A DNA stretch of 64,000 nt from Candidatus Omnitrophota bacterium (GTDB lineage Bacteria > Omnitrophota > Gorgyraeia > Zapsychrales > Zapsychraceae): assembly GCA_015233195.1 (NCBI GenBank), contig JADFYE010000001.1:83583-147582 (forward strand). The letters are read 5' to 3'. Positions 6,255 to 51,743 of this stretch are shown piece by piece. Numbering within the stretch: position 1 is the first letter of the stretch; each line of letters starts with the position of its first letter. Position numbers and translations under genes: made by a program. Below the pieces are notes generated by a model. The model worked only from the letters and a program-made list of their open reading frames with translations, did not search any database and had not been told where the DNA came from.

Positions 6255-7238
6255 ATGAACGAAAAAGTTAAAAATATTTTATCATGGTTTGTTCGGGTCG
6301 GACTGAGCGCGTTACTTTTGTGGTTTTTGTTTACCAAGATCGTTGACGTGAATAAAATAATTAATGTAGTCAAAGGCGCGGATCTAAAATATTTGGGCTA
6401 TGCACTTTTGGTTTTTATCATAACCACTATTGTTATATTTTTCCGTTGGGTAGTGTTTATCCGAGCGCTGGATCTTACAGTTTCGGGGTTTCAGATCATG
6501 CGTTTTTTTATGGTCGGATTATTCGGTAATTTATTTTTACCGAGTGCTATCGGCGGGGATATTATAAAGATCATTGGCTTATGTAAAAACAGCGACGACA
6601 AACCAAAAGTTGTGGCATCGGTTTTGTTAGATCGTTTGAGCGGATTTGCTGGCATAGCATTTACCGCGGTTGCAGCATTTTTGATAGGTTATAGAATAAT
6701 TAATAATAATTTTCTTTTGATTCCGGTCGTGGTTTTGTTTTTAGGGTCTTTAGTAGTGGCGGTGATTCTTTTTAATTCTGCGGCGTATGAGCTTGTAGGT
6801 AAATTATTTTTTGGATTCCCTAAAGTGCGCGATTCTTTGATGCAGATGCACGCTGATATTGGATTAATGAGAGGGAAAAAGTGGCAAGGATTTTTAGGAA
6901 TAGTATTATCAGCGTTAAACCAGGTTATATATTCCTGTGTTTTTTATTTAATAGCCCGGGCTTTTCACATTGACATAAGCCTTTTATATTTTGTGTTATT
7001 TGTTCCGTTGTTATGCGTAGTATCTATGGTGCCGTCATTCGGCGGGTTGGGTGTACGAGAAGCTGGCGCCGCGTATTTATTCGGGCGGATCGGCGTTGAT
7101 TCAGGAGTAGGAGTCAGTATTTCTTTAATGATATTTACTTTTATGGTTATATTAGGCATCGTAGGAGGAGTGATATATGTCTTTACAGTATCTTCTGGAC
7201 GGATACAACATAATCCACCAGATGCCGGAAGCAGATAA
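6255..7238 (+). CDS. UPF0104 / flippase-like (lysyl-phosphatidylglycerol-synthase TM-region-like) membrane protein
   Basis: About 8 TM helices. 'GGLGVREAG' near the C-terminus is typical of this family. Confidence 0.65.
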   Translation: MNEKVKNILSWFVRVGLSALLLWFLFTKIVDVNKIINVVKGADLKYLGYALLVFIITTIVIFFRWVVFIRALDLTVSGFQIMRFFMVGLFGNLFLPSAIGGDIIKIIGLCKNSDDKPKVVASVLLDRLSGFAGIAFTAVAAFLIGYRIINNNFLLIPVVVLFLGSLVVAVILFNSAAYELVGKLFFGFPKVRDSLMQMHADIGLMRGKKWQGFLGIVLSALNQVIYSCVFYLIARAFHIDISLLYFVLFVPLLCVVSMVPSFGGLGVREAGAAYLFGRIGVDSGVGVSISLMIFTFMVILGIVGGVIYVFTVSSGRIQHNPPDAGSR

Positions 7239-20733: not shown

Positions 20734-21248
20734 AATTTTTTAAACATGAAAAAGCTATGGTAGATGATGGGGCTATGGTCGGAGATGATACCCGCGTGTG
20801 GGCAAATGTATATATTCAAAAAGGCGCGAGCGTTGGTAAAGGCTGCAATGTATGCAATGGGACGTTTATTGAACGCGGCGCGAAAATTGGCGATCATGTT
20901 ACGATAAAACATAATGTTTCGATTTTTGACGGGGTTACTATAGAAGATGATGTTTTTATTGGTTCTAATATAGCTTTTATTAATGATCGATTTCCGAGGA
21001 GCAATCGCGAAGACGCTTGGACGCTGGAAAAAACTTTGATAAAAAAAGGCGCTACTTTAGGCGCTAACGCGGTGGTGATGTGCGGATTGGTCGTCGGAGA
21101 ATATGCAGTGGTGGGTGCTGGCGCGGTTGTTACGAAAGATGTTCCGGCTTTTACTATAGTGGTAGGTAATCCAGCGCGTAAAGTAGGAATGGCATGTAAA
21201 TGCGGGCGAAAATTAGACGCAGCCATGCAATGTTCTTGTGGGAAATAA
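20730..21248 (+). CDS. left-handed beta-helix (hexapeptide) acyl/acetyltransferase, WbpD/WxcM-like
   Basis: Hexapeptide repeats run throughout. The C-terminal tail reads 'CKCGRKLDAAMQCSCGK'. Confidence 0.8.
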   Translation: MKFFKHEKAMVDDGAMVGDDTRVWANVYIQKGASVGKGCNVCNGTFIERGAKIGDHVTIKHNVSIFDGVTIEDDVFIGSNIAFINDRFPRSNREDAWTLEKTLIKKGATLGANAVVMCGLVVGEYAVVGAGAVVTKDVPAFTIVVGNPARKVGMACKCGRKLDAAMQCSCGK

Positions 21249-21249
21249 T

Positions 21250-21981
21250 ATGTCTAAAATTTTGGTAAGCCCGATTGCGTATAATGAAAATGTTAAATTA
21301 GAAAAAGTTATAACACGTTATTTAGGCAGTCCGGCAAAGGGATTTACTGATTATTTGGTAATGGATGATTGTTCAGACGACGGCACAACTGAAATGATCG
21401 CGTCCTACGCTAACATGGGGGTTAAAACTTTGCGCCATGAAAAGCGTTCTGGTGTCGGCGCAGCGATAAGAACCGTGATTAGATTTGCACAGAAGAATAA
21501 TTATGATGTGTTGGTGATCATGGCTGGGAATGATAAGGACGATCCGAATCAGATACCGCTTTTGGTCAGCCCGATCGTGGATCAGGGATATGATTTTGTA
21601 CAAGGGTCGCGTTATAAAGGCGCGAATGGTATAGGCGGAGATATGCCGTTTTACCGTAAATTAGCTACACGTTTGCATCCGTTTTTGATGAGTTTGATAA
21701 CCGGCGTAAAAGTAACTGATACGACCAATGGGTTCAGGGCGTTTAAGGTATCAATTTTGAAAGATTCTCGGATTGATCTCGACCAAGAGTGGTTAGATAA
21801 ATATGAATTGGAACCATATTTGCTTTTTAAGACTTTAAAATATGGTTATAAATTTACAGAAGCGCCAGTTACTAAGATTTATCCGCCTAAGAAATTGGGT
21901 TATACAAAAATGAAGCCGTTTTCTGGGTGGTGGAGTATTTTAAGACCGCTTATATATTTAGGTTTGGGTATAAAAAAATAG
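21250..21981 (+). CDS. family 2 glycosyltransferase
   Basis: GT-A features 'VMDDCSDDGT' and 'DFVQGSR'. The ATG at 21250 is preferred over the overlapping GTG at 21238. Confidence 0.8.
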   Translation: MSKILVSPIAYNENVKLEKVITRYLGSPAKGFTDYLVMDDCSDDGTTEMIASYANMGVKTLRHEKRSGVGAAIRTVIRFAQKNNYDVLVIMAGNDKDDPNQIPLLVSPIVDQGYDFVQGSRYKGANGIGGDMPFYRKLATRLHPFLMSLITGVKVTDTTNGFRAFKVSILKDSRIDLDQEWLDKYELEPYLLFKTLKYGYKFTEAPVTKIYPPKKLGYTKMKPFSGWWSILRPLIYLGLGIKK

Positions 21982-22013
21982 CCCCGTAAAATCGCGGTGC
22001 GATCACGGGGTTT
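21982..22013 (+). terminator. GC-rich hairpin with T-run (terminator-like)
   Basis: CCCCGT-aaa-ATCGC-ggt-GCGAT-c-ACGGGG followed by TTT. Confidence 0.5.
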
Positions 22014-23034: not shown

Positions 23035-23620
23035 AAATAAAAAACCTGACTTCAAGAGCGCGGTTAATTTTTTTGCTGAAGCTGGATTATTGAAGCATGT
23101 AAAACGCAGCGGGTGGTGGGTTGCGGGAATTAAAGACCCTGAAAGTGTAGCTGAACATTGTTTTAGATGCGCGGTCATGGGTTATTATATTGCACAGCTC
23201 GAGGGAGTTGATCCGTATAAAGTTTTGCTTATGACATTGTTCAATGATATTCATGAAGCGCGGATAAATGATTTGCATAAAATGGGTCATTTTTATATTG
23301 ATTTTAAAGAAGCTGAGAAAAAAGTGTTCGCTGACCAGATTAAACCTTTGGATGAAAAAGTTAATAGCGAAATGGCAGGTATACGGAGAGATTACGATGG
23401 GCAATTAACAGCTGAAGCTATAGTAGCCAGAGACGCGGACATATTAGAATGTCTTTTACAGGCGCGTGAATATTTTGATAATGGACATACTAAAGCTAAG
23501 AAATTTTTTAAAGTCGCGCCAGATCATTTAAAGACTAAAACCGCGAAGAGTTTATGGGAAACTATGAAGGATTGGGATAGCGGTGAGTGGTGGGAAAACG
23601 TAGTAAAATTTGAAAGATAA
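22988..23620 (+). CDS. HD-domain phosphohydrolase (YfbR-like 5'-deoxynucleotidase family)
   Basis: 'ESVAEHCFR' followed by 'NDIHEARINDL' shows the H...HD...D pattern. Confidence 0.75.
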   Translation: MLMKSPDKNVKDKKSKNKKPDFKSAVNFFAEAGLLKHVKRSGWWVAGIKDPESVAEHCFRCAVMGYYIAQLEGVDPYKVLLMTLFNDIHEARINDLHKMGHFYIDFKEAEKKVFADQIKPLDEKVNSEMAGIRRDYDGQLTAEAIVARDADILECLLQAREYFDNGHTKAKKFFKVAPDHLKTKTAKSLWETMKDWDSGEWWENVVKFER

Positions 23621-23680
23621 CCGGCTCCGCAGATGCGGGATCGGTGCTGTGTGGCGCCGATCCCGCATCTGCGGAGCCGG
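23621..23680. repeat. perfect 24-bp GC-rich inverted repeat (hairpin)
   Basis: CCGGCTCCGCAGATGCGGGATCGG-(12 nt)-CCGATCCCGCATCTGCGGAGCCGG. I verified the complementarity by hand. Confidence 0.9.
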
Positions 23681-23727
23681 TTAAAAAGTATGAATAAGCG
23701 TTAAATTTTATTGAGGTTAATGTTAAA

Positions 23728-30561: not shown

Positions 30562-33500
30562 ATGATACTGAATATTATTCCCAAATTTATTTTACGCAGG
30601 ATAATTGCGGCGATTGTTTTGACTGCATTCGTAGCCACGAGTGTAATTTCTCCTGCAGTCGCGCAAACAGCTTTGAGCTTACCAGCCGCAGGTTCACAGA
30701 TTAGTTTAAGCCCAGCATTTACCCCAACGTTACTTACCGGGGTGAAAATATTCCCTGAAAATCCGTTTAAGTTGGAATTTATTTTAAATAAAAGCCCTGA
30801 ACCACGTGGGGTTCAGGGTGCGCCCTTTGAACCGGGTCTGGTTCAGGGTGATAATAATGATCCCCTCTCCAGCCTCCGGGGAGAGGGTCAGGGTGAGGGG
30901 AAACAGGAAGATATAAAAAAAGAAGCCAATCGTTTAATCAAATATTTTTTAGCTTCTGTAACTGTCCCGGAAAAAGACCTTTGGGTAAACCTTTCGCCTG
31001 TTGAAAAAAATTGCATCACAACTGAAGCATTTGGTCAGACCGAAATGGGTCGCGATTTGCTGGCGCAAGACTATATTCTCAAACAAATCACTGCATCATT
31101 GCTTAATCCTGACAATGAAACCGGTCGGAAGTTTTGGGAATCGATATATTCGAAAGTATACCTTCCCCCCAACAAGAATACTGGGGTGGGGAAGGGCAGG
31201 GTAGGGGGGCAAGACTTTGATATCTCAACAGATATCTTGAGCAAAGTCTGGATCGTCCCTGCAAAAGCGGTGGTGTATGAGGGGAAAGATAGCGCGTACG
31301 TAGTGGAATCAAAATTAAAAGTGCTTTTGGAAGAAGACTACAATGTCATTCTGAGGAACGAAGTGACGAAGAATCTAAAAAAAGATCCTTCCCCTTCGCA
31401 AACTCAGGGTCAGGATGACGCAAAGTTAAATATGCAATTAATGCGTCAAATCATCATCCCTGCCCTAGAGCGCGAAGTTAACGAAGGCAAGAATTTCGCT
31501 CAGCTTCGACAGATTTACAACTCTCTCATCCTCGCCACATGGTACAAAGATAAAGTAAAATCAAGCATATTTGGCAAAGCCTACATTGACCAAAAGAAAA
31601 CCGGCGGCATCAACATCTCCGATAAAAACGAAAAAGAAAAAATTTGGGCGCAGTACGTTGAGATATTTAAAAAAGGCGCGTACAACAATATCAAAGAAGA
31701 ATATGACCCTGCCACGCAGCAGATCATAGCAAAAAAATATTTCTCCGGCGGAGCAGGACTGAATGAAATCAAAGAAAATGGCGCTTATAGCAAGACAACG
31801 GATAAAGCTAAGCAACCTAAAGGTATTTTGGACAGCGCGATGGTTGTTAAGGTTACGCTCGATCCTGCTATGAAATCCGAAGACGCTGCTATGCCAGCTG
31901 ACAAGATCATTCCTATGACCTGGCAGCAGGCTGTTGAAGAATTACGGAAAGTTCCTGTTGTGCGGTCAACAGCGAAAAAGTGGATCGCGGTCATGGCATT
32001 TAATAATAAAGGGGAAGTATTGTTACGGCATAAAGTACTAGATGATTCCAATTTAAATGATTGGATGCATAAAGACCTTATTACAGATCCAGAATTTCAA
32101 CGTAAAAATGAAGTTAGCGTTGATTGGGTTTCGGTTGTGTTCGATTATAAGAATGGGAAAGTGGGAGATATTATTATTGATGCACCAGCTTTGTCAAATC
32201 AAAGGCAAGGACATACAGATGGAATATTGAAATTCAAAGGTCTTTTGCGCGACGAGTTACCGCAAAATTGGCAGATACAGCCTGGACGGGATCATATTCA
32301 GCGATATAAAGTCATGTTAAAAAATGATGTGATCCGTGCGGCGCGTCTTATGTGTGATGCTTGGCAGCCTATTGATCCGCTTATTGGAGAAACAAATACC
32401 AAAGCTTTATATGATGTAAACCTTGGGGAACAAGAAAGGTCATTAAAACAAATCGCAGCAGAATCATTGACAGAGGATTTTGCGATGCTGGCAGACGCGG
32501 AAACATTGGAAATTTCTTCTGGTCAGGATTTAGGGTGGGAATTACAAAAATTTCTTAAAATAAATCCGAATTTAATCTTAGAGAATAAGCGGCAGGGGCT
32601 TAAATATAAAATTCAGCGACGATTAGGAGACGCGGAGCATCTTGGAGTTTATCAAGCTTTACGATTTTCTGAACAAGAACCACAAGGTAAGATGGTAGCT
32701 TTAAAAATATATCACGCGCCGTTTATGTATTATGTTGAGATTCAGGAAATAGCCGACTTTTTTAAAGCCATTAAAGACGATCCGCAAGCAATTGAGTTTT
32801 TTGCAAAACCAACAGAAAAATTAGCAGTCAGTATGGCGCAATGGGAAAATTATCATTTGCTGGATATGGATTTTGTAGAGGGCACACCTTTAAGTCATAT
32901 TACTGATAAAGAAAAAAGGCTTAAAATAATTTTAGATTTTATTGAGAAGTTAGCGCACATTCATAGAACATATAAAGCATTTCATGGAGATTTAAATGAA
33001 AATAATGTTATGGTTCATCCTGATGGTAGTCCGGTAGTTATAGATTGGGATTTTTTAAGAATTGCAGATGACCGGGACAGCATCGAGCAGATTAAGTTTT
33101 CAATGAAGTATAAAGATATTTTTTCTGTTGGTTCTATGCTTTTACAGACTTTTGTACCGTCAGCAGAAGTGTTGGAATCTCCAAATGTGTTTACTGGTGA
33201 TCTTTGGCAGACTGATGTTGACATCAGCGCAACAACCCCAACTGAAATAAAAGGAGCTGACGGTATTGTGCCCGAAGGAATATTAAAAATAATCAAAAAA
33301 GCCATGTTGTGTACGCCGAGTGATCATTATGAATCACTGGATCAATTATTGAATGATTTAAGAAATGAGCTAGGTGTAGCGAAGAATACTTATAGTAATG
33401 GCACCAGTCCAATATTTACTAATAAACAACAAATAATAGATTTCTTACAGCAGTTTCCTTTTGCAGAGGGGCATGTACATTTTGGAAGTTCAGTTCCGGA

Positions 33501-36057
33501 GGATACTTTGTGGGAATTGGCGCTTGAAAGGACTGAATTAGATTGGACGGATATAAATCAGGAATTAAATCGAGTCTTTGGTGTAACAGTTGATATTAAA
33601 GATATTTTAGATGAGGCACGTCGAGAATATGCTGTAGGTAAAGGTGAATTGATTAATATAGAAAAAATAAATAAGTTAAAGACTGAATTTTTAAGTTATT
33701 TTACATTGAAAATAACTGATAAAGTTGATTTGAGAAAATTTAGCACACTTTATGACATTTTAGGAACTTTAACGCGAGGGCCATCTGCGTTGGTTGAAAG
33801 AATATCAAAACAGATTGCGTTAAAAAATTATGTAAATGGAGTAAAAGTTTTAATTCAAAGAGCTACTTTGCCTAAAGGACATAATGAAATAGATGTGTAT
33901 TTTAAAACGCGGGATAAATTATACGCGATCAAGCGGGGTTTTGAAAGCGCTGAACAAGAGGTTAATTCAAAATTAAAAAGTGGTGAGGTTGGTCTTCAAA
34001 CTAAATTGGTAGTTACTATTGGAAGATCATCGAATGTAGATGTGCTGCTTATGCAAACTAAGGCTTTATTACGGGTATTGGCAGATTATAAAGATTTACG
34101 AGAGTTTGTAGTTGGATTTGATGTGGCAGGAGAAGAAAGTTTAAAATCGCCGACTGAATTGATTCCGGTGTTTGATTTGATCGATCAATATAATCATCAA
34201 AGGCAATTGAAACAAGAAGAGGTTTTAGCCATAACTTATCACGTAGGAGAAGACTTTAAGCATGTTTCAGTTGAGAGCAGTATTCGTAACGCGGATGAAG
34301 TTATTGAATTGGGAACGCGTGGGATCGGTCATGGTTTGGTGCTGGGACTTGATCCTCAAAGATTTTTGGGCAAAACTAAAAAAGAACACATTAGTGAACG
34401 GCTTACTCAAATATATTATGATCTTAAGAATAAAAAGTTTTTCAAGAAAGAATTAGCTGCTGTTGGTTTGGTTATTGATGAAACTGTACTTTGGGAGGAG
34501 CTGAAAGCATTTCCAGATGAAAATGAATACATTAAAAAACAAATTTTGCCGCTGATGGAGAAAATTTTAACGGCATCAGCGCTGGATATAAAGTCTGAAA
34601 AGAAACTTTATGCTCGGTTGAATAAAATGAAACAATTATTTAGGCACAAAACTGTTTCAACGTTATATGAAACGCAGGAGAGCATTAAAGTGTTAAGACA
34701 AAGGCAAAGGTTTGTTTTAAATAAAGCGATTGAAAGACAGGTGATTATAGAAGTTAATCCATCGGTTAATGTTCTTATCGGTCCAATTGAGGAATATAGA
34801 GAGCATCCTCTACCTAATTTGCTTAGATATGAATATACTGGAGCCAAGGCGGAATTTAAAGGCCAGCGGCCGCTGGTATCGATTAATACGGATAATCAAA
34901 CAATTTTGGGTATAGATTTGATTCATGAATATCTGCAAATGATATTAACATTTGGTTTGACGCATGACGACGTGAAACAAATCATTTTAAACGGAATTAA
35001 ATATAGATTAGGTGGGTTTCCATTAAAGTATGCTGAACAAATCCGTGCAGTATTTGAGGCTATGGGGGTGAGTGTAGATATTGATCAGGCTATGGCAGTA
35101 AAAAGCAGACCAGGTCAATATGCCAATTTTACTGATTTTTCAAAGCGCGCGATTTTAGGTCCTCTCCCAGACGGGAAAGGTAGTAGCATTACGGCTCAGG
35201 AGATTATTGAAAGAGAGTTGCCGGCAGCTTTATATACGGTTAAAAATTTGATTCGTCTGAGAATATGGATGGATGAGAATGGATATGCCGATCGACCGGT
35301 TGTTATTTGGCAGAATTTAAGTTTGGGGGAATATTATCCTTATTTTACTGAGGATATTAAGCGTCACATGGGCGTAGTTGATTATCTTGAAGAAGGTATT
35401 ACGAAAAAAAATATTATGCGATTAAAGAATGCCAGGTTTATTTTGATTAAAGCCAAAATGAGTTCAGAATTCGCTAACATTAGTGAGGAGTATGAAAAGT
35501 TTATGTATTTATCGTCTAGAATCAAAGCTCCGATAGTGATGATTGACCACAGTAATGGTATTTTTTCAAAAGCGCAAATACAAATTAAATTAAACGAGGA
35601 GAGCGCGAAGCGTGAGGTATTGTCTTTGGGCGTTAAGGATGATAAGGATTTAGATAAGTATGCAAGTTTATTTAGGCAAGAAAATTTGTTTGTTTTATTA
35701 AATCCGAATTTAAAACCAATTGCTCGTGACGGGATATCATCGTTTGATGATCCAGGCGGTAACTTAGTTTCAGAAGTTACGATTAATAGCGAAAGAATGA
35801 AAGCTTTAAAGGCATTGAAAGTGTTATTAGGATATGCTGTAGAAAATAACTTGAAATTAAATGACACAGACGAAAAGGGCGGGATTGATTTAACTCGCGA
35901 TAAAATGAATATCGAGGTTAAAGGGGCACAGGATAGTGTTAAATTTAAAGTGGATCAAGCCATGTTGCAACAATTGCAAAATTCTTCAGGTTTAATGCCA
36001 GTAGTGGTTGATGTCCATCCGCTTACAACGACGATTGAAGTTTATTTGAATAATTAA
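30562..36057 (+). CDS. giant exported mosaic protein: signal peptide + conserved N module + kinase-like domain + adenosine/AMP-deaminase-like domain + conserved C-terminal 'GGIDL' module
   Basis: Uninterrupted 1,831-codon ORF. The signal reads 'RRIIAAIVLTAFVATSVISPAVAQT'. Kinase motifs are 'VALK' (K715) and 'HGDLNENN' (H808-D810, nt 32983), followed by 'VIDWD'. Deaminase motifs are 'GHVHFGSS' (H971/H973, nt 33472), 'YHVGED' (H1227/E1230, nt 34240), 'GIGHG' (H1257, nt 34330) and 'SINTDNQ' (D1444, nt 34891). Confidence 0.85.
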   Translation: MILNIIPKFILRRIIAAIVLTAFVATSVISPAVAQTALSLPAAGSQISLSPAFTPTLLTGVKIFPENPFKLEFILNKSPEPRGVQGAPFEPGLVQGDNNDPLSSLRGEGQGEGKQEDIKKEANRLIKYFLASVTVPEKDLWVNLSPVEKNCITTEAFGQTEMGRDLLAQDYILKQITASLLNPDNETGRKFWESIYSKVYLPPNKNTGVGKGRVGGQDFDISTDILSKVWIVPAKAVVYEGKDSAYVVESKLKVLLEEDYNVILRNEVTKNLKKDPSPSQTQGQDDAKLNMQLMRQIIIPALEREVNEGKNFAQLRQIYNSLILATWYKDKVKSSIFGKAYIDQKKTGGINISDKNEKEKIWAQYVEIFKKGAYNNIKEEYDPATQQIIAKKYFSGGAGLNEIKENGAYSKTTDKAKQPKGILDSAMVVKVTLDPAMKSEDAAMPADKIIPMTWQQAVEELRKVPVVRSTAKKWIAVMAFNNKGEVLLRHKVLDDSNLNDWMHKDLITDPEFQRKNEVSVDWVSVVFDYKNGKVGDIIIDAPALSNQRQGHTDGILKFKGLLRDELPQNWQIQPGRDHIQRYKVMLKNDVIRAARLMCDAWQPIDPLIGETNTKALYDVNLGEQERSLKQIAAESLTEDFAMLADAETLEISSGQDLGWELQKFLKINPNLILENKRQGLKYKIQRRLGDAEHLGVYQALRFSEQEPQGKMVALKIYHAPFMYYVEIQEIADFFKAIKDDPQAIEFFAKPTEKLAVSMAQWENYHLLDMDFVEGTPLSHITDKEKRLKIILDFIEKLAHIHRTYKAFHGDLNENNVMVHPDGSPVVIDWDFLRIADDRDSIEQIKFSMKYKDIFSVGSMLLQTFVPSAEVLESPNVFTGDLWQTDVDISATTPTEIKGADGIVPEGILKIIKKAMLCTPSDHYESLDQLLNDLRNELGVAKNTYSNGTSPIFTNKQQIIDFLQQFPFAEGHVHFGSSVPEDTLWELALERTELDWTDINQELNRVFGVTVDIKDILDEARREYAVGKGELINIEKINKLKTEFLSYFTLKITDKVDLRKFSTLYDILGTLTRGPSALVERISKQIALKNYVNGVKVLIQRATLPKGHNEIDVYFKTRDKLYAIKRGFESAEQEVNSKLKSGEVGLQTKLVVTIGRSSNVDVLLMQTKALLRVLADYKDLREFVVGFDVAGEESLKSPTELIPVFDLIDQYNHQRQLKQEEVLAITYHVGEDFKHVSVESSIRNADEVIELGTRGIGHGLVLGLDPQRFLGKTKKEHISERLTQIYYDLKNKKFFKKELAAVGLVIDETVLWEELKAFPDENEYIKKQILPLMEKILTASALDIKSEKKLYARLNKMKQLFRHKTVSTLYETQESIKVLRQRQRFVLNKAIERQVIIEVNPSVNVLIGPIEEYREHPLPNLLRYEYTGAKAEFKGQRPLVSINTDNQTILGIDLIHEYLQMILTFGLTHDDVKQIILNGIKYRLGGFPLKYAEQIRAVFEAMGVSVDIDQAMAVKSRPGQYANFTDFSKRAILGPLPDGKGSSITAQEIIERELPAALYTVKNLIRLRIWMDENGYADRPVVIWQNLSLGEYYPYFTEDIKRHMGVVDYLEEGITKKNIMRLKNARFILIKAKMSSEFANISEEYEKFMYLSSRIKAPIVMIDHSNGIFSKAQIQIKLNEESAKREVLSLGVKDDKDLDKYASLFRQENLFVLLNPNLKPIARDGISSFDDPGGNLVSEVTINSERMKALKALKVLLGYAVENNLKLNDTDEKGGIDLTRDKMNIEVKGAQDSVKFKVDQAMLQQLQNSSGLMPVVVDVHPLTTTIEVYLNN

Positions 36058-40798: not shown

Positions 40799-43102
40799 AT
40801 GCGTTTAAAACACTTATATATATTGCGTAAAAGTGTTACGTCAATTGTTCTATTCGCTTTCCTATTAACAAATGGGTTTGCTCATGTCTGTTCTGCGCAA
40901 AATGTTGTTACGCAAATAACTTTAAGTCCGGCATTTACACCCTCGCTTCTTACTGGTGTGAAAGTTTTTCCTGAAGATCCGTTTAAGTTGGAGTTTATTG
41001 TTAATAAAGGTCCAGTAAAATCGCTTCGCGATCACGGGGTTGATGATAGTCATTCTGAGGCTTTAGCCGAAGAATCTAAAAAATTAATCAAATATTTCCT
41101 CGCTTCAGTTACTATCCCAGAAAATGATCTTTGGGTTAATCTCTCGCCTACAGAAAAAAATCGGATTACAACAGAAGCATTTGGTCAAACTGAAATGGGG
41201 CGAGACTTACTCGCGCAGGATTACATCCTTAAACAAATCACATCAGCACTACTTAATCCTGATAATGAAACAGGTCGGAAATTTTGGAATGAAATTTATA
41301 GTAAAAGTTATAACGTAGGGGCACGACATGTCGTGCCCGAAATTCCAACAGATATCTTGAGTAAAGTTTGGATCGTCCCAGCAAAGGCAGTGGTTTATGA
41401 AGGGAAAGATAGCGCGTATGTTGTGGAGAGTAAATTGAAAGTGCTTTTGGAAACTGATTATTTTACGATGCAAAAAATGAAAAATTCCAAAAGCATCCCG
41501 AGGACACAGGACGAGGGAGTACCACAAAAAGATCCTTCACCTTCGCAAGCTCAGGCTCAGGATGACGCAAAGTTAAATATGCAATTAATGCGTCATATCA
41601 TTGTCCCCGTACTTGAAAAAGAAGTTAACGAAGGCAAGAATTTTGCACAACTGCGTCAGGTCTATAACTCACTCATCCTTGCAACCTGGTACAAGAAAAA
41701 AATAAAAGATAGTATATTTAACGCGTATATCGACCAGAAAAAAATCGCTGGCGTTGACATTTCGGACAAATCCGAAAAAGAAAAAATTTGGGCACAGTAC
41801 GTTGAAACATTTAAAAGAGGCGCATATAATTATGTCAAAGAAGAATACGACCCTAACGCTCAACAGATAATTGCAAAAAAATATTTTTCAGGTGGGGTAC
41901 AAATTAATGGGCGTTATAAAAAAGCTGAACGCGCGCAACTCGCCGCTAAAAAATCAGACGGAGCAATGATAGTTCGCGTTTTTTTGGATCCAGAGCAAAC
42001 TCAAGAAATTATTCAGATTAAAGATGGAATAGATCTTCGGAAGGTTGTAAAAGAAGCTTTTGTGAAAAATCCTAATATTGTTTTAGAAATACCAGGACAT
42101 AATATTCGATATGAAAATTTGCAAAGTTTAGGATTTGGAGGGTTTGGAAATGTTTATGCGGCTACGAGAAGGTCTGCGGATATGCATGACGGTAAAAGAG
42201 TGGCGATTAAAACATATGAAAGTGTAGGATGGTTTAGCTCGAAAACTGAAGTTTTTAGGGAATTTTTAAATGTAAGGAGTGGCGATGTTGCTGCTAAAAA
42301 CTTTTTTGTTGGTGTGACAGATTTTCGGGATGCAGCCAATGGCGACAGTTTAGATGTATGGAAAAATTATGGTTTGTTGGATATGGATTATATTGAAGGT
42401 ACGCGATTTTTTGAATTAAAAGATAAACAGCAGAAAATCAGAATTTTATTATATGTAATTGAGCAAATGGCAGGTTTTTTTAGAGAATATGGCGTTGTTC
42501 ATGGTGATTTACGAGCGAATAATATTTTGATCAAATCTGACGGCTATCCAATTGGAATTGATTGGGATTCGTTGTATATGTATAACGATTTGATGGATCG
42601 GTTTAAGTTTGTAAAAAGAGATATTAATACAGTTGGAACAATGCTTTTACATGTATTTGATCCTAAAGCAACTCTTCATTTAGTTACTGATCCCAAGTCG
42701 ACAACTAAAGGTTTAATCGTACAAATTAGTGGAGGCGAAAACATTCCTCCTGGAATAAAAAAAATTATTAAAAAGGCGGTATTTTGCAGAGAAGATAATC
42801 GTTTTGAATCTTTAGAAGATTTGTTGATTGATTTAAAAGCAGCTTTAGCAGAAGAAATGCCGGAGATTTTTACGAATAATAATTTACACGACGGTGATCA
42901 GGCGATGAAACACACTGGGGGTATTGATTTAACCGGAGATAAAATGGCTGTTCAGGTTGAGGGGACTGGTGATGGCATTCAGTTCAAGTTCGATCAAGCT
43001 ATGATCGCTAAAATTCAAAACGCTTCAGGACTTGCGCCTGTCATTATTGATATTAGGAACATGAATATAAGCCTGCTGCAGTTTTTAGGAGTTAATGAAT
43101 AA
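40799..43102 (+). CDS. exported paralogue of the giant protein: signal peptide + N module + Hanks-type kinase-like domain + C-terminal 'GGIDL' module (no deaminase)
   Basis: The signal reads 'SIVLFAFLLTNGFAHVCSAQN'. The N module aligns with 30562-36057 along about 360 aa. The kinase has a G-loop 'GFGGFGNVY' (nt 42131), 'VAIK' (nt 42200), 'HGDLRANN' (nt 42500) and 'GIDWD'. The ATG at 40799 is preferred over the track start at 40739. Confidence 0.82.
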   Translation: MRLKHLYILRKSVTSIVLFAFLLTNGFAHVCSAQNVVTQITLSPAFTPSLLTGVKVFPEDPFKLEFIVNKGPVKSLRDHGVDDSHSEALAEESKKLIKYFLASVTIPENDLWVNLSPTEKNRITTEAFGQTEMGRDLLAQDYILKQITSALLNPDNETGRKFWNEIYSKSYNVGARHVVPEIPTDILSKVWIVPAKAVVYEGKDSAYVVESKLKVLLETDYFTMQKMKNSKSIPRTQDEGVPQKDPSPSQAQAQDDAKLNMQLMRHIIVPVLEKEVNEGKNFAQLRQVYNSLILATWYKKKIKDSIFNAYIDQKKIAGVDISDKSEKEKIWAQYVETFKRGAYNYVKEEYDPNAQQIIAKKYFSGGVQINGRYKKAERAQLAAKKSDGAMIVRVFLDPEQTQEIIQIKDGIDLRKVVKEAFVKNPNIVLEIPGHNIRYENLQSLGFGGFGNVYAATRRSADMHDGKRVAIKTYESVGWFSSKTEVFREFLNVRSGDVAAKNFFVGVTDFRDAANGDSLDVWKNYGLLDMDYIEGTRFFELKDKQQKIRILLYVIEQMAGFFREYGVVHGDLRANNILIKSDGYPIGIDWDSLYMYNDLMDRFKFVKRDINTVGTMLLHVFDPKATLHLVTDPKSTTKGLIVQISGGENIPPGIKKIIKKAVFCREDNRFESLEDLLIDLKAALAEEMPEIFTNNNLHDGDQAMKHTGGIDLTGDKMAVQVEGTGDGIQFKFDQAMIAKIQNASGLAPVIIDIRNMNISLLQFLGVNE

Positions 43103-49171: not shown

Positions 49172-50386
49172 ATGTCCATTTTTGATATTTTAATAATTGT
49201 TGATACCGCGCTTATAGCGTTTTTGGTATTTTTCCGCAAAGATATTGGTGGGAAACATATTGACGAACAATTTGATCGTCTGGAAAAAAATCAGGAACGC
49301 ACTGAACGTATGGTACGCGAGGATGTTGCTCAAAATCGTGAGGAATTATCCAAAACGCTTAATCAGTTTAGTGAGACTTTTTCTAAACAAATTTCGTCTA
49401 TGGCGCAGGGTAATGAGGCGCGGTTGGAAAAAATGCGGGATGTGGTTGAGGCACGATTGAAAGAGTTACAGGCGGATAATAGTCAGAAACTTGAACAAAT
49501 GCGGGTTACTGTAGACGAGAAACTGCATAATACTTTGGAACGGCGTTTGGGTGATTCATTTAAATTGGTGAGTGAACGTTTGGAAAAAGTTCATCAGGGT
49601 TTGGGCGAGATGCAGAATCTAGCGTCTGGTGTGGGAGATTTGAAACGAGTGTTACTTAATGTGAAGACTAAAGGTATTTGGGGTGAGATTCAGTTAGGTA
49701 ATTTGTTGGAACAAACTTTATCGCCGGATCAATACGAAAAAAATGTTAGGACTAAATCAGGTAGTAATGACGCGGTAGAGTTTGCGGTTAAGCTTCCTGG
49801 GCGTAGCGGCAGTGATATTGTGTATTTACCAATAGATTCTAAATTTCCGACTGAAGATTTTGAACGGTTATTGGACGCGCAGGATAAGGCGGATGTTGTT
49901 GCTATGGTTGAAAGCCAGAAAGCGTTGGAAGCTCGTATCAAAATGGAAGCTAAAAAGATTAAAGATAAATATATTGATCCTCCGCATACTACTGATTTTG
50001 CGATTATGTTTTTACCGACTGAGGGTCTTTATGCTGAAGTGTTGCGTCATCCCGGATTATTCGATCATTTACAGAGAGAACAACGGGTTACATTAGCTGG
50101 TCCAACGACTATAACTGCGATATTAAATAGTTTACATATGGGCTTTAGAACTTTGGAAGTTGAGAAACGCGCGTCGGAAGTTTGGCAGGTATTAGGCACA
50201 GTTAAGACTGAATTTCATAAATTCGGCGAGATTCTCGAGAGTACACAGAAGAAGATCGAGTCAGCGCAAAAAGAATTAGAATCTGCTACGCGTAAGACCA
50301 GAACCATTGAGAAAAAATTGGATAAAGTTCAAGGCATTACTGTGAGTGAAACTGAAATACTTCCTAATTTAGAAGAACATGAATAA
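49172..50386 (+). CDS. rmuC: DNA recombination protein RmuC
   Basis: An N-terminal TM and coiled-coil are followed by a nuclease-like core ('VEFAVKLPG', 'LPIDSKFP', 'FAIMFLPTEGLYAEV'). Confidence 0.85.
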   Translation: MSIFDILIIVDTALIAFLVFFRKDIGGKHIDEQFDRLEKNQERTERMVREDVAQNREELSKTLNQFSETFSKQISSMAQGNEARLEKMRDVVEARLKELQADNSQKLEQMRVTVDEKLHNTLERRLGDSFKLVSERLEKVHQGLGEMQNLASGVGDLKRVLLNVKTKGIWGEIQLGNLLEQTLSPDQYEKNVRTKSGSNDAVEFAVKLPGRSGSDIVYLPIDSKFPTEDFERLLDAQDKADVVAMVESQKALEARIKMEAKKIKDKYIDPPHTTDFAIMFLPTEGLYAEVLRHPGLFDHLQREQRVTLAGPTTITAILNSLHMGFRTLEVEKRASEVWQVLGTVKTEFHKFGEILESTQKKIESAQKELESATRKTRTIEKKLDKVQGITVSETEILPNLEEHE

Positions 50387-51080
50387 AGACCGCATCTTTC
50401 CCGAACATATTGTATATTTCACCTCTTTACGCGACCTTGATTTTACCTTTCCTAAACCAGAATACATTCCGAATGAGAAGCAGATAGCTTATTTGACACA
50501 ACGTTTGGGCATATCCAAGTTTCCTGTTCTCAGCTTAAATCAAGTGCATGGCGCGGATGTATTCGTTGCAGAAGATCTGCTGGAACAGGGGACTATGCTC
50601 GTGGATGGTGATGCAATAATCTGCCAGCAGTCAAAAATCCCGATTATGGTACGCACCGCTGATTGTCAGCCGATCTTTGTTTACGATGCTGGTACGGATG
50701 CGATCGGAATGGTGCATGCAGGTTGGCGCAGTACTAATCAAAATATTTTGATTAACACTTTGGAATTGATGAGTAAAAAATATGGTACTGAGTTTCAGGA
50801 TGTAAGTGTTGTTTTAGGTCCGTCGTTGCGTAAATGTTGTTACGAAGTAGGTGAAGAATTTTTAGAATATTTTCCAAAAGAGGTTGAGATAAGCAACGGT
50901 AAGAGAATGTTTGATTTGGCGCAAGCTAATGTGCGGCAAGCTTTGGATAGAGGGGTGGGAAAGGATCGGATATTTGATATAGGCGAATGTACTGGATGTT
51001 TAGCGGATAAATATTTTTCGTATCGGCGTGAAAAAGACGCAGCCGGCAGAATGATAAGCGTGATTATGAAGAAGTTATAA
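50379..51080 (+). CDS. pgeF: YfiH/PgeF-family (laccase-domain) protein
   Basis: 'QVHGADV', 'TADCQPIF' and 'HAGWR' are the family's conserved His/Cys motifs. Confidence 0.85.
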   Translation: MNKDRIFPEHIVYFTSLRDLDFTFPKPEYIPNEKQIAYLTQRLGISKFPVLSLNQVHGADVFVAEDLLEQGTMLVDGDAIICQQSKIPIMVRTADCQPIFVYDAGTDAIGMVHAGWRSTNQNILINTLELMSKKYGTEFQDVSVVLGPSLRKCCYEVGEEFLEYFPKEVEISNGKRMFDLAQANVRQALDRGVGKDRIFDIGECTGCLADKYFSYRREKDAAGRMISVIMKKL

Positions 51081-51260: not shown

Positions 51261-51315
51261 GATTGGAAATTGATTTCAACGTTGCTTACGAATTTTAAAA
51301 ATATGATAGTTTATT

Positions 51316-51357
51316 ATCCCCTCTCCAGCCTTTGGGGAGAGGGTAGGGTGAGGGGAT
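51316..51357. repeat. GC-rich palindromic repeat unit (CCCCTCTCC...GGAGAGGG...GAGGGG type)
   Basis: Nearly identical to 30862-30900 inside the giant ORF. It has both inner (CCCTCTCC/GGAGAGGG) and outer (ATCCCCTC/GAGGGGAT) pairings. Confidence 0.85.
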
Positions 51358-51425
51358 CTTTTAAAAATATTTATTTTTTTACTTTGTACTCTGTGTACTC
51401 TGTACTTTTTAAAAAAGGAGCGCTT

Positions 51426-51743
51426 ATGTATTCTATAGTTTTTGTTACGGTTAAGGGTAATGAGGAAGCAAAAAAAATCGCGGACACTTTAGTGATAGAA
51501 AAATTGGTAGCGTGCGTTAATATGATTGATCAGGTCAAGTCAGTGTTTTGGTGGAAAGGTGAAGTGCAGTATGGGGAGGAAATTTTGTTGATTATGAAGA
51601 CCAAAGATTCGGCGTTACCTCAATTGATTGCTCGGATAAAATTATTACACAGTTACACTGTACCTGAGATCATATCAGTTCCGATTAAAACTGGTAATCC
51701 GGATTATTTAAAATGGATTGGTGATTCTGTTGTCGATCATTGA
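51426..51743 (+). CDS. cutA: divalent-cation tolerance protein CutA
   Basis: 'VFVTVKGNEEAKKIADTLVIEKLVACVNM...SVFWWKGEV' has the CutA1 layout. AAGGAG precedes the ATG at 51426. The track's upstream extension reads through repeat DNA. Confidence 0.8.
   Translation: MYSIVFVTVKGNEEAKKIADTLVIEKLVACVNMIDQVKSVFWWKGEVQYGEEILLIMKTKDSALPQLIARIKLLHSYTVPEIISVPIKTGNPDYLKWIGDSVVDH

Follow-up and report, generated by a model that had tools for sequence, protein, structure and literature searches.

Small GC-rich repeats of several classes, probably inserted in frame into three loops of an Omnitrophota protein family

Within 64,000 nucleotides of a Candidatus Omnitrophota bacterium (contig JADFYE010000001.1, positions 83,583 to 147,582; hereafter the window) lies a giant open reading frame (ORF) that carries GC-rich, structured sequence units in its family-specific N-terminal domain of about 400 amino acids. 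We assign a probability of roughly 0.8 to the reading, taken as a whole, that these units are copies of small GC-rich structured dispersed repeats that were inserted into three loops of the domain and are translated as passengers. Four units, which we call U0 to U3, occupy the loops L1 (U0 and U1), L2 (U2) and L3 (U3). A paralogue in the window has the same N-terminal domain, and its inserts differ from those of the giant ORF in every loop (Table 1).

An earlier note on this DNA had described U1, U2 and U3 as hairpin-forming units embedded in the giant ORF, and all three sequences are present and read without stops in the frame 30562-36057. U3 is a real fold, a single long hairpin of -23 kcal/mol (z -2.7 relative to shuffles), but U1 and U2 are not a simple hairpin with a tail; they are potential intrastrand-triplex motifs of the kind known as BoxC or PIT (potential intrastrand triplex). 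Three further units had been overlooked, namely U0 and, in the paralogue, the hairpin at 41015-41041 (with its twin elsewhere in the window) and the unit at 41049-41083.

Table 1. Repeat units and host genes in the window (positions counted from its first nucleotide).
Feature	Position	Strand	Description
Giant ORF, 1831 amino acids	30562..36057	+	uninterrupted frame
U0	30795..30849	+	loop L1; two tandem GC-rich hairpins, CCCTGAACC-6-GGTTCAGGG and CCCTTTGAACC-6-GGTTCAGGG; translated as PEPRGVQGAPFEPGLVQG
U1	30862..30900	+	loop L1, in frame; BoxC/PIT/TMECO-type potential intrastrand-triplex motif (C-stem, G-stem, mirror G-stem); CCCCTCTCC (30862-70), 9-nt loop, GGAGAGGG (30880-87), tcagggt, GAGGGG (ends 30900); translated as PLSSLRGEGQGEG
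U2	31161..31209	+	loop L2; PIT-like triplex motif with other stems; CCTTCCCC, 19-nt loop, GGGGAAGG, GCAG, GGTAGGGG; 8 perfect triads
U3	31345..31419	+	loop L3; two REP-like units with CGTC/TGTC tags in inverted arrangement, at 31345-31376 (left) and 31383-31419 (right), separated by an A-run
Paralogue, 787 amino acids	40739..43102	+	common N-terminal domain, kinase cargo
Paralogue L1 hairpin	41015..41041	+	GTAAAATCGC-TTC-GCGATCACGGGGTT
Paralogue L1 unit	41049..41083	+	GTCATTCTGAGG-8-GAAGAATCT and A-run; counterpart of U3 left arm
Paralogue L2 GTAG-tagged REP	41315..41338	+	GTAG and GGGCACGAC-AT-GTCGTGCCC; translated as VGARHVVP
Paralogue L3 units	41494..41566	+	left unit degenerate (CATCCCGAGG..CGAGGGA); right unit nearly the same as U3 right arm
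Twin of paralogue L1 hairpin	21986..22012	+	intergenic, terminator-like; downstream of ORF 21238-21981 (glycosyltransferase gene)
Twin of U1	51318..51355	+	intergenic BoxC/PIT copy; between PF02578 (Cu-oxidase_4) gene 50379-51080 and cutA (ATG 51427)

The near-identical intergenic copy of U1 that the earlier note had reported was recovered. It differs from U1 by two loop substitutions and one deleted base, with 36 of 39 positions in common, and the pattern defined by the pair had no match in 100 shuffles. The copy is overlapped by an ORF with a TTG start (51270-51743). The CutA1 domain of this ORF begins only at residue 56 and its likely start is the ATG at 51427, preceded by GGAG, which argues that the TTG-initiated ORF is over-called and the twin of U1 truly intergenic. 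Among the matches listed, the loop variant AGCCTnnGG is found in U1 and its twin and in none of 119 other copies, which suggests that both belong to one lineage-specific subfamily. A possible target-site duplication at the intergenic copy was rejected because it comprises only AT/AT flanks, bases that extend the stem. An rmuC-family gene (PF02646; 49172-50386) lies about 1 kb upstream of this copy, a proximity that may be coincidental. In E. coli, loss of rmuC function by mutation goes with more frequent inversion at inverted repeats of short length.

The repeat that U1 resembles was named BoxC first, then PIT and then TMECO (Bachellier, 1996, and Hoyne & Maher, 2000, as cited in Holder et al., 2015, PMC4666352). 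Its published pattern is CCCTCNCCC N3-6 GGGNGAGGG N3 GGGNGAGGG, with one stem mismatch permitted (PMC4666352). U1 and its twin have the same C, G and mirror-G blocks, with G-blocks GGGAGAGGG and GGGTGAGGG. In U1 the pattern is reproduced exactly in the second loop (3 nt) and in each of the two G blocks, and at 8 of 9 positions in the C block, but loop 1 measures 7 nt (9 nt unpaired) instead of 3-6 nt; the second loop of the intergenic copy is 2 nt long, compared with N3 in the published pattern. The 3' 25 nt of U1 equal a BoxC copy of the E. coli cca-bacA spacer at 24 positions. We class U1 and 51318-51355 as probable members of the BoxC/PIT/TMECO repeat, two close copies within the window.

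Scanned over one genome per species with loop 1 left free, the BoxC pattern was found at at least 118 loci in at least 7 phyla; the loci listed belong to Alpha-, Beta-, Gamma- and Deltaproteobacteria, Planctomycetota, Verrucomicrobia, Omnitrophota, Ignavibacteria, Methylomirabilota and one actinobacterium. The BoxC core is present in 4685 of 5426 complete E. coli genomes, at a median of 6 places each. The setting of the present copies differs from that described in E. coli K-12, where all 23 copies are intergenic (PMC4666352), whereas U1 and U2 are translated; loop 1 is longer here (7-9 nt, and 19 nt in U2, which has the stems CCTTCCCC/GGGGAAGG), and the host is an AT-rich Omnitrophota genome. 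Candidate intragenic BoxC copies in other phyla, flagged by long stop-free frames (21 of 119), were dismissed as unreliable because most of the genomes concerned are GC-rich and contain long chance ORFs.

We also searched the window by a triad rule, which calls for a pyrimidine stem, a complementary purine stem and a mirror third strand that together form 8 or more perfect triads of the types G·G-C, A·A-T or T·A-T. Exactly three motifs emerged, U1, U2 and the intergenic copy (51319-53), all on the + strand. No such motif arose in 100 dinucleotide shuffles of the window or in any of 5000 local shuffles of U1 or U2. The claim that U2 repeats the architecture of U1 with a co-varied stem is strengthened by its triads. 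U2 does not match the published BoxC sequence at all; with its three co-varied blocks CCTTCCCC, GGGGAAGG and GGTAGGGG, it is a second potential triplex motif. As simple hairpins, U1 (z -1.0) and U2 (z +0.1) are not distinguished from their shuffles, since a C-run with G-runs after it can pair however it is shuffled.

GC skew is strongly positive in all 4-kb bins of the window (+0.10 to +0.30), and most genes lie on the + strand. The skew indicates that the + strand is leading-strand sequence, which then carries the G-rich strand of all three triplex motifs; for the giant ORF it is the non-template strand as well. The G-rich strand would therefore be the one exposed in lagging-strand synthesis and in transcription, where triplex formation is only a potential.

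U0, directly upstream of U1 in the same loop, has the strongest fold among the units (z -4.75) and is missing in 31 aligned relatives. It has the motif G[GT]TCAGGGTG in common with the second loop region of U1. Tandem Repeats Finder reported nothing in 30700-31500, so U0 is not a scored tandem array.

U3 points to a different class, the CGTC-tagged REPs, which take in Neisseria dRS3 and R. conorii's RPE-4 and RPE-6 (PMC3733652). The left unit of U3 begins tGTC-ATTCT, and the right one closes with AGGAT-GACg, or CGTC-ATCCT when the opposite strand is read; both have the CGTC/TGTC tag and a stem starting in AT. The counterpart in the paralogue, at 41048, begins aGTC-ATTCT and has a degenerate tag. 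In place of the canonical stem of 8-9 bp, loop of 4-5 nt and CCA tail, the left unit of U3 and the paralogue unit at 41049-77 have a perfect stem of 5 bp (ATTCT/AGAAT), an interior of 17 or 14 nt, respectively, and a CTA tail. The CGTC-type units of the window are related variants and not canonical members of the class. Their organisation in U3 as an inverted dimer recurs in the inserts of two homologues, P0039 and P0054, in both of which long hairpins were confirmed in the DNA; the L3 insert of P0039 has the design of U3 but is read in a different frame.

A homologue locus from the family (L128) shows that canonical units do occur in these loops. It contains six identical copies of tGTC-ATTCCCGC-GAAA-GCGGGAAT-CCA within 21 kb, all in one orientation (positions 6458, 10694, 15481, 16041, 16488 and 18468), and this unit matches the CGTC-1 definition exactly in stem, loop and CCA tail. 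One copy lies in loop 3 of the family gene and others in intergenic arrays; some are arrayed with other GTCAT-headed units, and some lie inside long ORFs.

The loops of the paralogue provide a second intragenic/intergenic twin pair. Its L1 hairpin is identical at 24 of 27 nt to the terminator-like hairpin at 21986-22012, a correspondence that found no match in shuffles. The adjoining unit at 41049-41083 corresponds to the left arm of U3, but it lies in a different loop (L1 as opposed to L3) and is read in a different frame (HSEALAEES). In L2, where the earlier note had placed a different, perfect 20-nt palindrome, that palindrome is present (41319-41338, fold z -3.8) and belongs to an element with an unpaired GTAG beside a 9-bp stem with a 2-nt loop. 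This agrees with the GTAG REP class, which is defined by a GTAG tag, a stem of 6-13 bp and a very short loop (PMC3733652). The window holds one copy; GTAGGGGCACG occurs in 5 other fetched loci, including two from Omnitrophota (L125 and L186).

The units are missing from most of about 200 homologues, as the presence/absence alignment suggested in the earlier note brought out. Aligned as DNA, the two paralogues are 73-90% identical in conserved blocks, and the alignment collapses to non-homology in exactly three places, the loops. L1 has a base length of 16 amino acids in 73 of 101 database relatives and 36 of 63 metagenome loci, compared with 47 in the giant ORF and 25 in the paralogue; 47 is the longest database value, and one metagenome locus (L200) has 50. 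For L2 the base length is 18 amino acids (75 of 78 relatives), and only the two window genes (31 in the giant ORF and 21 in the paralogue) and one distant family member, L189, deviate from it. L3 is more variable, with a modal length of 30-32 and a maximum of 76 amino acids; the giant ORF has 39 and the paralogue 48. Counterpart units occur in different frames and orientations. Compared in this way, the units are additions to the ground plan of the family.

Both host genes show the marks of intact coding sequence around the inserts. The three conserved blocks between the loops are 84-97% identical in amino acid sequence between the paralogues, with a ratio of nonsynonymous to synonymous divergence (dN/dS) of 0.07 and a synonymous divergence (dS) of about 1.3, which indicates that both genes are functional and that the duplication is old. 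In an AlphaFold2 model of the N-terminal domain, of moderate confidence only (mean predicted local distance difference test score, pLDDT, 66.5; predicted template modelling score 0.64), the segments that are coil or have pLDDT below 50 are residues 84-110, 203-220 and 271-283, and the inserts occupy residues 79-113 (U0 and U1), 201-217 (U2) and 262-286 (U3). The insertions are thus in frame in an intact ORF and at sites that the model suggests are compatible with the fold. Since these segments sit between well-predicted strands and helices, they are, in this model, loops within a single N-terminal domain, and not the inter-domain linkers that had been proposed.

These comparisons bear on the notion that the units are ordinary low-complexity coding sequence, chance palindromes or assembly artefacts, the least probable of the readings that we considered. 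It could draw on the hairpin energies of U1 and U2, which are no better than those of composition-matched shuffles, and on the single-copy status of U0 and U2 in the material searched (see below). Intergenic twins nevertheless exist for both U1 and the hairpin at 41015-41041, and shuffle tests gave zero matches for the twin of U1, the U3 unit in the paralogue, the twin of 41015-41041 and the triad motifs. Nor are the units both unique to these genes and conserved as protein sequence, the pattern that the earlier note had named as contrary to insertion: the inserts are missing from most homologues. Comparable inserts occur in dozens of independent metagenome assemblies, and taken together these results largely refute the notion.

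The same loops are occupied by repeat-like sequence across the family. Peptide footprints of inserts in the loops of homologues include VIPAKAGIQ, VIARSEATKQS, VVASEAKQS..SRND, VETQNFASL, VGTRHAVPL, GLIHQT..MINHAPT and PSPSWEGDGRG, and in homologue P0010 a palindrome is seen as the peptide RADIKSAPTT..VGADLVSAR. Relative to shuffles, extended loops have far stronger folds (mean z -2.2 in L1 and -2.1 in L3), and loops of base length do not (-0.3 and -0.2). PIT motifs recur in L1 of two further loci (L132 and L154); in L3 of L189 (1490-1590) two of them lie in inverted arrangement. L189 is the only gene outside the window with an extended L2, and its pair resembles the palindromic TMECO pairs of E. 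coli. Units are also found directly after the N-terminal domain and in a loop of the C-terminal GGIDL domain.

Counting heads of CGTC-type units in 82 Omnitrophota loci (1.02 Mb), we obtained 3.16 units per kb in L1 and L3 together. Intergenic DNA has 0.46 per kb, the remainder of the family genes 0.07 and other ORFs 0.05; the counts are not independent across homologues. The density in L1 and L3 is about 60-fold that of other coding DNA. Together with the twin pairs, the appearance of a U3 unit in different loops of the paralogues and the absence of inserts from most homologues, this supports the earlier proposal that repeats of intergenic type entered permissive segments and are now translated. 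On a rough neighbour-joining tree of 61 family genes built with the loops left out, parsimony required at least 13 changes for extended L1 (19 tips; 16.3 with randomised tips) and at least 14 for extended L3 (24 tips; 19.1 with randomised tips). Nearest neighbours on the tree are often unlike in loop state or element type. The pattern implies many gains and losses, as far as such a tree can be trusted.

Several observations weigh against simple insertion of passenger repeats. At U2 the usual KRYGTT of L2 is replaced, so this was not a clean insertion, and the 19-nt loop of U2 may retain the KRYGTT codons. For U0 and U2, neither the window nor the 201 fetched loci (1.9 Mb) yielded a second copy, and they are regarded as repeats because of their architecture and because homologues lack them. 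The right arm of U3 and the next 33 nt form the most conserved nucleotide stretch between the paralogues (31378-31452 and 41526-41600), 90-97% identical against a background of 73-87%, in a gene pair close to saturation at synonymous sites; the patch could reflect gene conversion or a constraint on the nucleotide sequence. Among the 22 window ORFs scanned there is no transposase, including none of the Y1 type, and no target-site duplications are evident. The density of units in L1 and L3 is 7-fold above that of intergenic DNA, an excess that passive tolerance alone does not predict and to which targeting, selection or shared ancestry may contribute.

The last point raises the question of whether the loops are actively targeted or the elements selected, with a role at the DNA level in the diversification of loops or in recombination that swaps cargo modules. 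We consider this quite unlikely. It would explain the excess over intergenic DNA, gains and losses that are near random on the tree, units beyond the three loops (after the N-terminal domain and in the GGIDL domain) and the high-identity patch that adjoins U3. It would also fit the position of the G-rich strand of all PIT motifs on the leading, non-template strand, and the link between BoxC/TMECO sites and local instability in E. coli (PMC4666352). TMECO of E. coli forms a purine-motif triplex as single-stranded DNA, seen by circular dichroism and nuclear magnetic resonance, but none was detected in vivo (PMC4666352). The density counts, as noted, lack independence, intergenic DNA in compact genomes may be under tighter constraint than these loops, and with a dS of about 1.3 between the paralogues the turnover need not be fast. 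A proposal in the same direction, that L1 and L3 (and rarely L2) are specific, recurrent sites of integration or retention, at which REP and triplex elements vary exposed loops and perhaps recombine cargo modules, seems to us doubtful; it would allow that L3 itself derives from REPs in the whole family.

We also compared sense and antisense folding. In 39 of 51 extended L1/L3 linkers (L122-L201) the antisense strand forms the more stable fold of the two, by a mean of 4.4 kcal/mol (Wilcoxon p = 1e-4), compared with +1.0 for linkers of base length; the pattern holds for U3 and not for U0, U1 or U2. Selection against strong mRNA structure could produce this bias, as could a bias in orientation or mutation. 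It speaks against the idea that the hairpins are selected as mRNA structures, for ribosome pausing between folding units or in membrane targeting, or for transcript stabilisation, which we hold to be very improbable. U0 and U3 do fold significantly better than shuffles as RNA, and G-T pairs in REP stems have been taken in the REP literature as a hint of RNA function. However, as RNA hairpins U1 and U2 do not surpass their shuffles, RNA does not form purine-motif triplexes (PMC4666352), inserts are missing from most homologues, and no unit has an Rfam match: a scan of the whole window at gathering thresholds returned only a tRNA, and an E-value scan of 30700-31500 gave only sub-threshold chance matches.

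Insertion of passenger repeats would account for these observations as follows. Several repeat classes would have entered, and partly overwritten, the short surface loops L1, L2 and L3 of the conserved N-terminal domain: BoxC/PIT in the case of U1 and U2, CGTC/TGTC REP-like units in the case of U3 and 41049-83, a GTAG REP at 41315-38, and lineage-specific hairpins in the case of U0 and 41015-41. Most GC-rich units seldom contain stops and could persist for that reason; 4 to 5 of 6 frames are open in U0, U1, U2, the intergenic copy, 41015-41 and the GTAG REP, and only 1 of 6 in U3 and 41049-83. Only in-frame products would survive selection, and the loops would tolerate extra flexible coil rich in Gly, Pro, Ser, Glu and Arg. 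Each genome would supply its own repeat families, so that different elements appear at equal sites in homologues and the content turns over. The units themselves most likely have no function and are probably neutral passengers.

RAYT-type transposition is the accepted candidate mechanism for GTAG REPs and REP doublets, and it may have inserted the GTAG REP and the REP doublets seen here. We know of no insertion mechanism for BoxC/PIT; such units could have arrived by gene conversion from other copies.

The basic event has precedents. Palindromic elements of Rickettsia (RPEs) lie in frame in functional ORFs (Ogata, 2000/2002; Claverie & Ogata, 2003; as described in PMC3733652 and PMC10969869). 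From these accounts, the likeness extends to positions compatible with the fold and to a compact host genome. By the same accounts, RPE-1 is about 100-150 bp long and is scattered in many unrelated genes, mostly as single events, whereas the units described here measure 25-75 nt, belong to several classes and are stacked in three loops of one family across a phylum. The only link between the window units and RPE sequences is the equation of RPE-4 and RPE-6 with CGTC REPs (PMC3733652). Intragenic GTAG and CGTC REPs reach their highest numbers in Opitutus terrae and R. conorii (Di Nocera et al., 2013, PMC3733652); in-frame REPs have been reported, and flexible linkers and loops proposed as neutral sites for them (PMC3733652).

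The correspondence with known REPs is partial. The paralogue element has the GTAG tag, the 9-bp stem and the 2-nt loop of a GTAG REP, and the unit of L128 is a CGTC-1 REP by definition; U3 has the tags, the AT-starting stems and the inverted dimer of CGTC REPs, but differs in its 5-bp perfect stem, 17-nt interior and CTA instead of CCA tail. U3 and many L3 inserts further resemble REPINs, REP doublets that are mobilised by RAYT (Bertels & Rainey, 2011, PMC3116915), in that two inverted units with a short spacer form one long hairpin, with arm subtypes that match within a gene. In contrast to the published cases, no RAYT was found among the 22 window ORFs scanned, and Omnitrophota are not among the phyla reported (PMC3733652). 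In the Omnitrophota literature we found no paper mentioning such inserts.

Hairpins in the rest of the window were surveyed with a scan for GC-rich perfect stems, used in place of a listing of all inverted repeats, which was swamped by AT-rich chance palindromes. The window (38% G+C and about 88% coding) contains 10 perfect GC-rich hairpins with stems of at least 8 bp, 4 of which lie in the loops of the paralogues. Farther inside the giant ORF is a perfect 8-bp GC-rich hairpin (CGCTGATG..CATCAGCG, 34550-34581). A GC-rich palindrome of 30+30 nt with 97% complementarity (23618-23683), unrelated in sequence to the other units, occupies the spacer between an HD-domain ORF and an ORF for a PAS histidine kinase/response regulator.

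The host proteins appear to constitute an Omnitrophota-specific, membrane-anchored or secreted multi-domain family. More than 1300 relatives were found for the first ~440 residues of the giant ORF; the named ones are all from Candidatus Omnitrophota/Omnitrophica, and the best match is only 52% identical. The giant ORF encodes, in order, a signal/transmembrane helix, the N-terminal domain, a RIO/APH-like kinase, an adenosine-deaminase domain and a C-terminal GGIDL motif. This is the plan of the family, in which the position of the enzymes is taken by variable cargo, elsewhere methyltransferase, HAD, GNAT, peptidase or ATPase domains. The C-terminal motif is conserved as GGIDL..F.FD, and the enzymatic cargo is highly variable. 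The N-terminal domain matched no Pfam family, and a Foldseek search of its model against the PDB returned nothing with E<0.2. By analogy, the architecture resembles that of polymorphic cargo-delivery proteins.

The translated repeats described here are a further example, in a poorly known phylum, of an event already known from the RPEs of Rickettsia and the REPs of Opitutus and other bacteria. Three aspects go beyond the literature consulted: a triplex-type BoxC/PIT repeat, strictly intergenic as reported for E. coli K-12, is translated; at least three unrelated repeat classes converge on three loops of one family; and these loops form a family-wide hot spot whose unit density exceeds the intergenic value 7-fold and the value for other coding DNA about 60-fold. 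The inserts also create spurious peptide similarities across phyla (for example PLSPxGGEGQGEG, VIPAKAGIQ and VGARHAVPL), whose origin in repeats annotators should recognise. If targeting or selection should prove to lie behind the hot spot, it would offer a means to learn how small repeats pick their sites or remain at them, and it may likewise be used to study how surface loops diversify.

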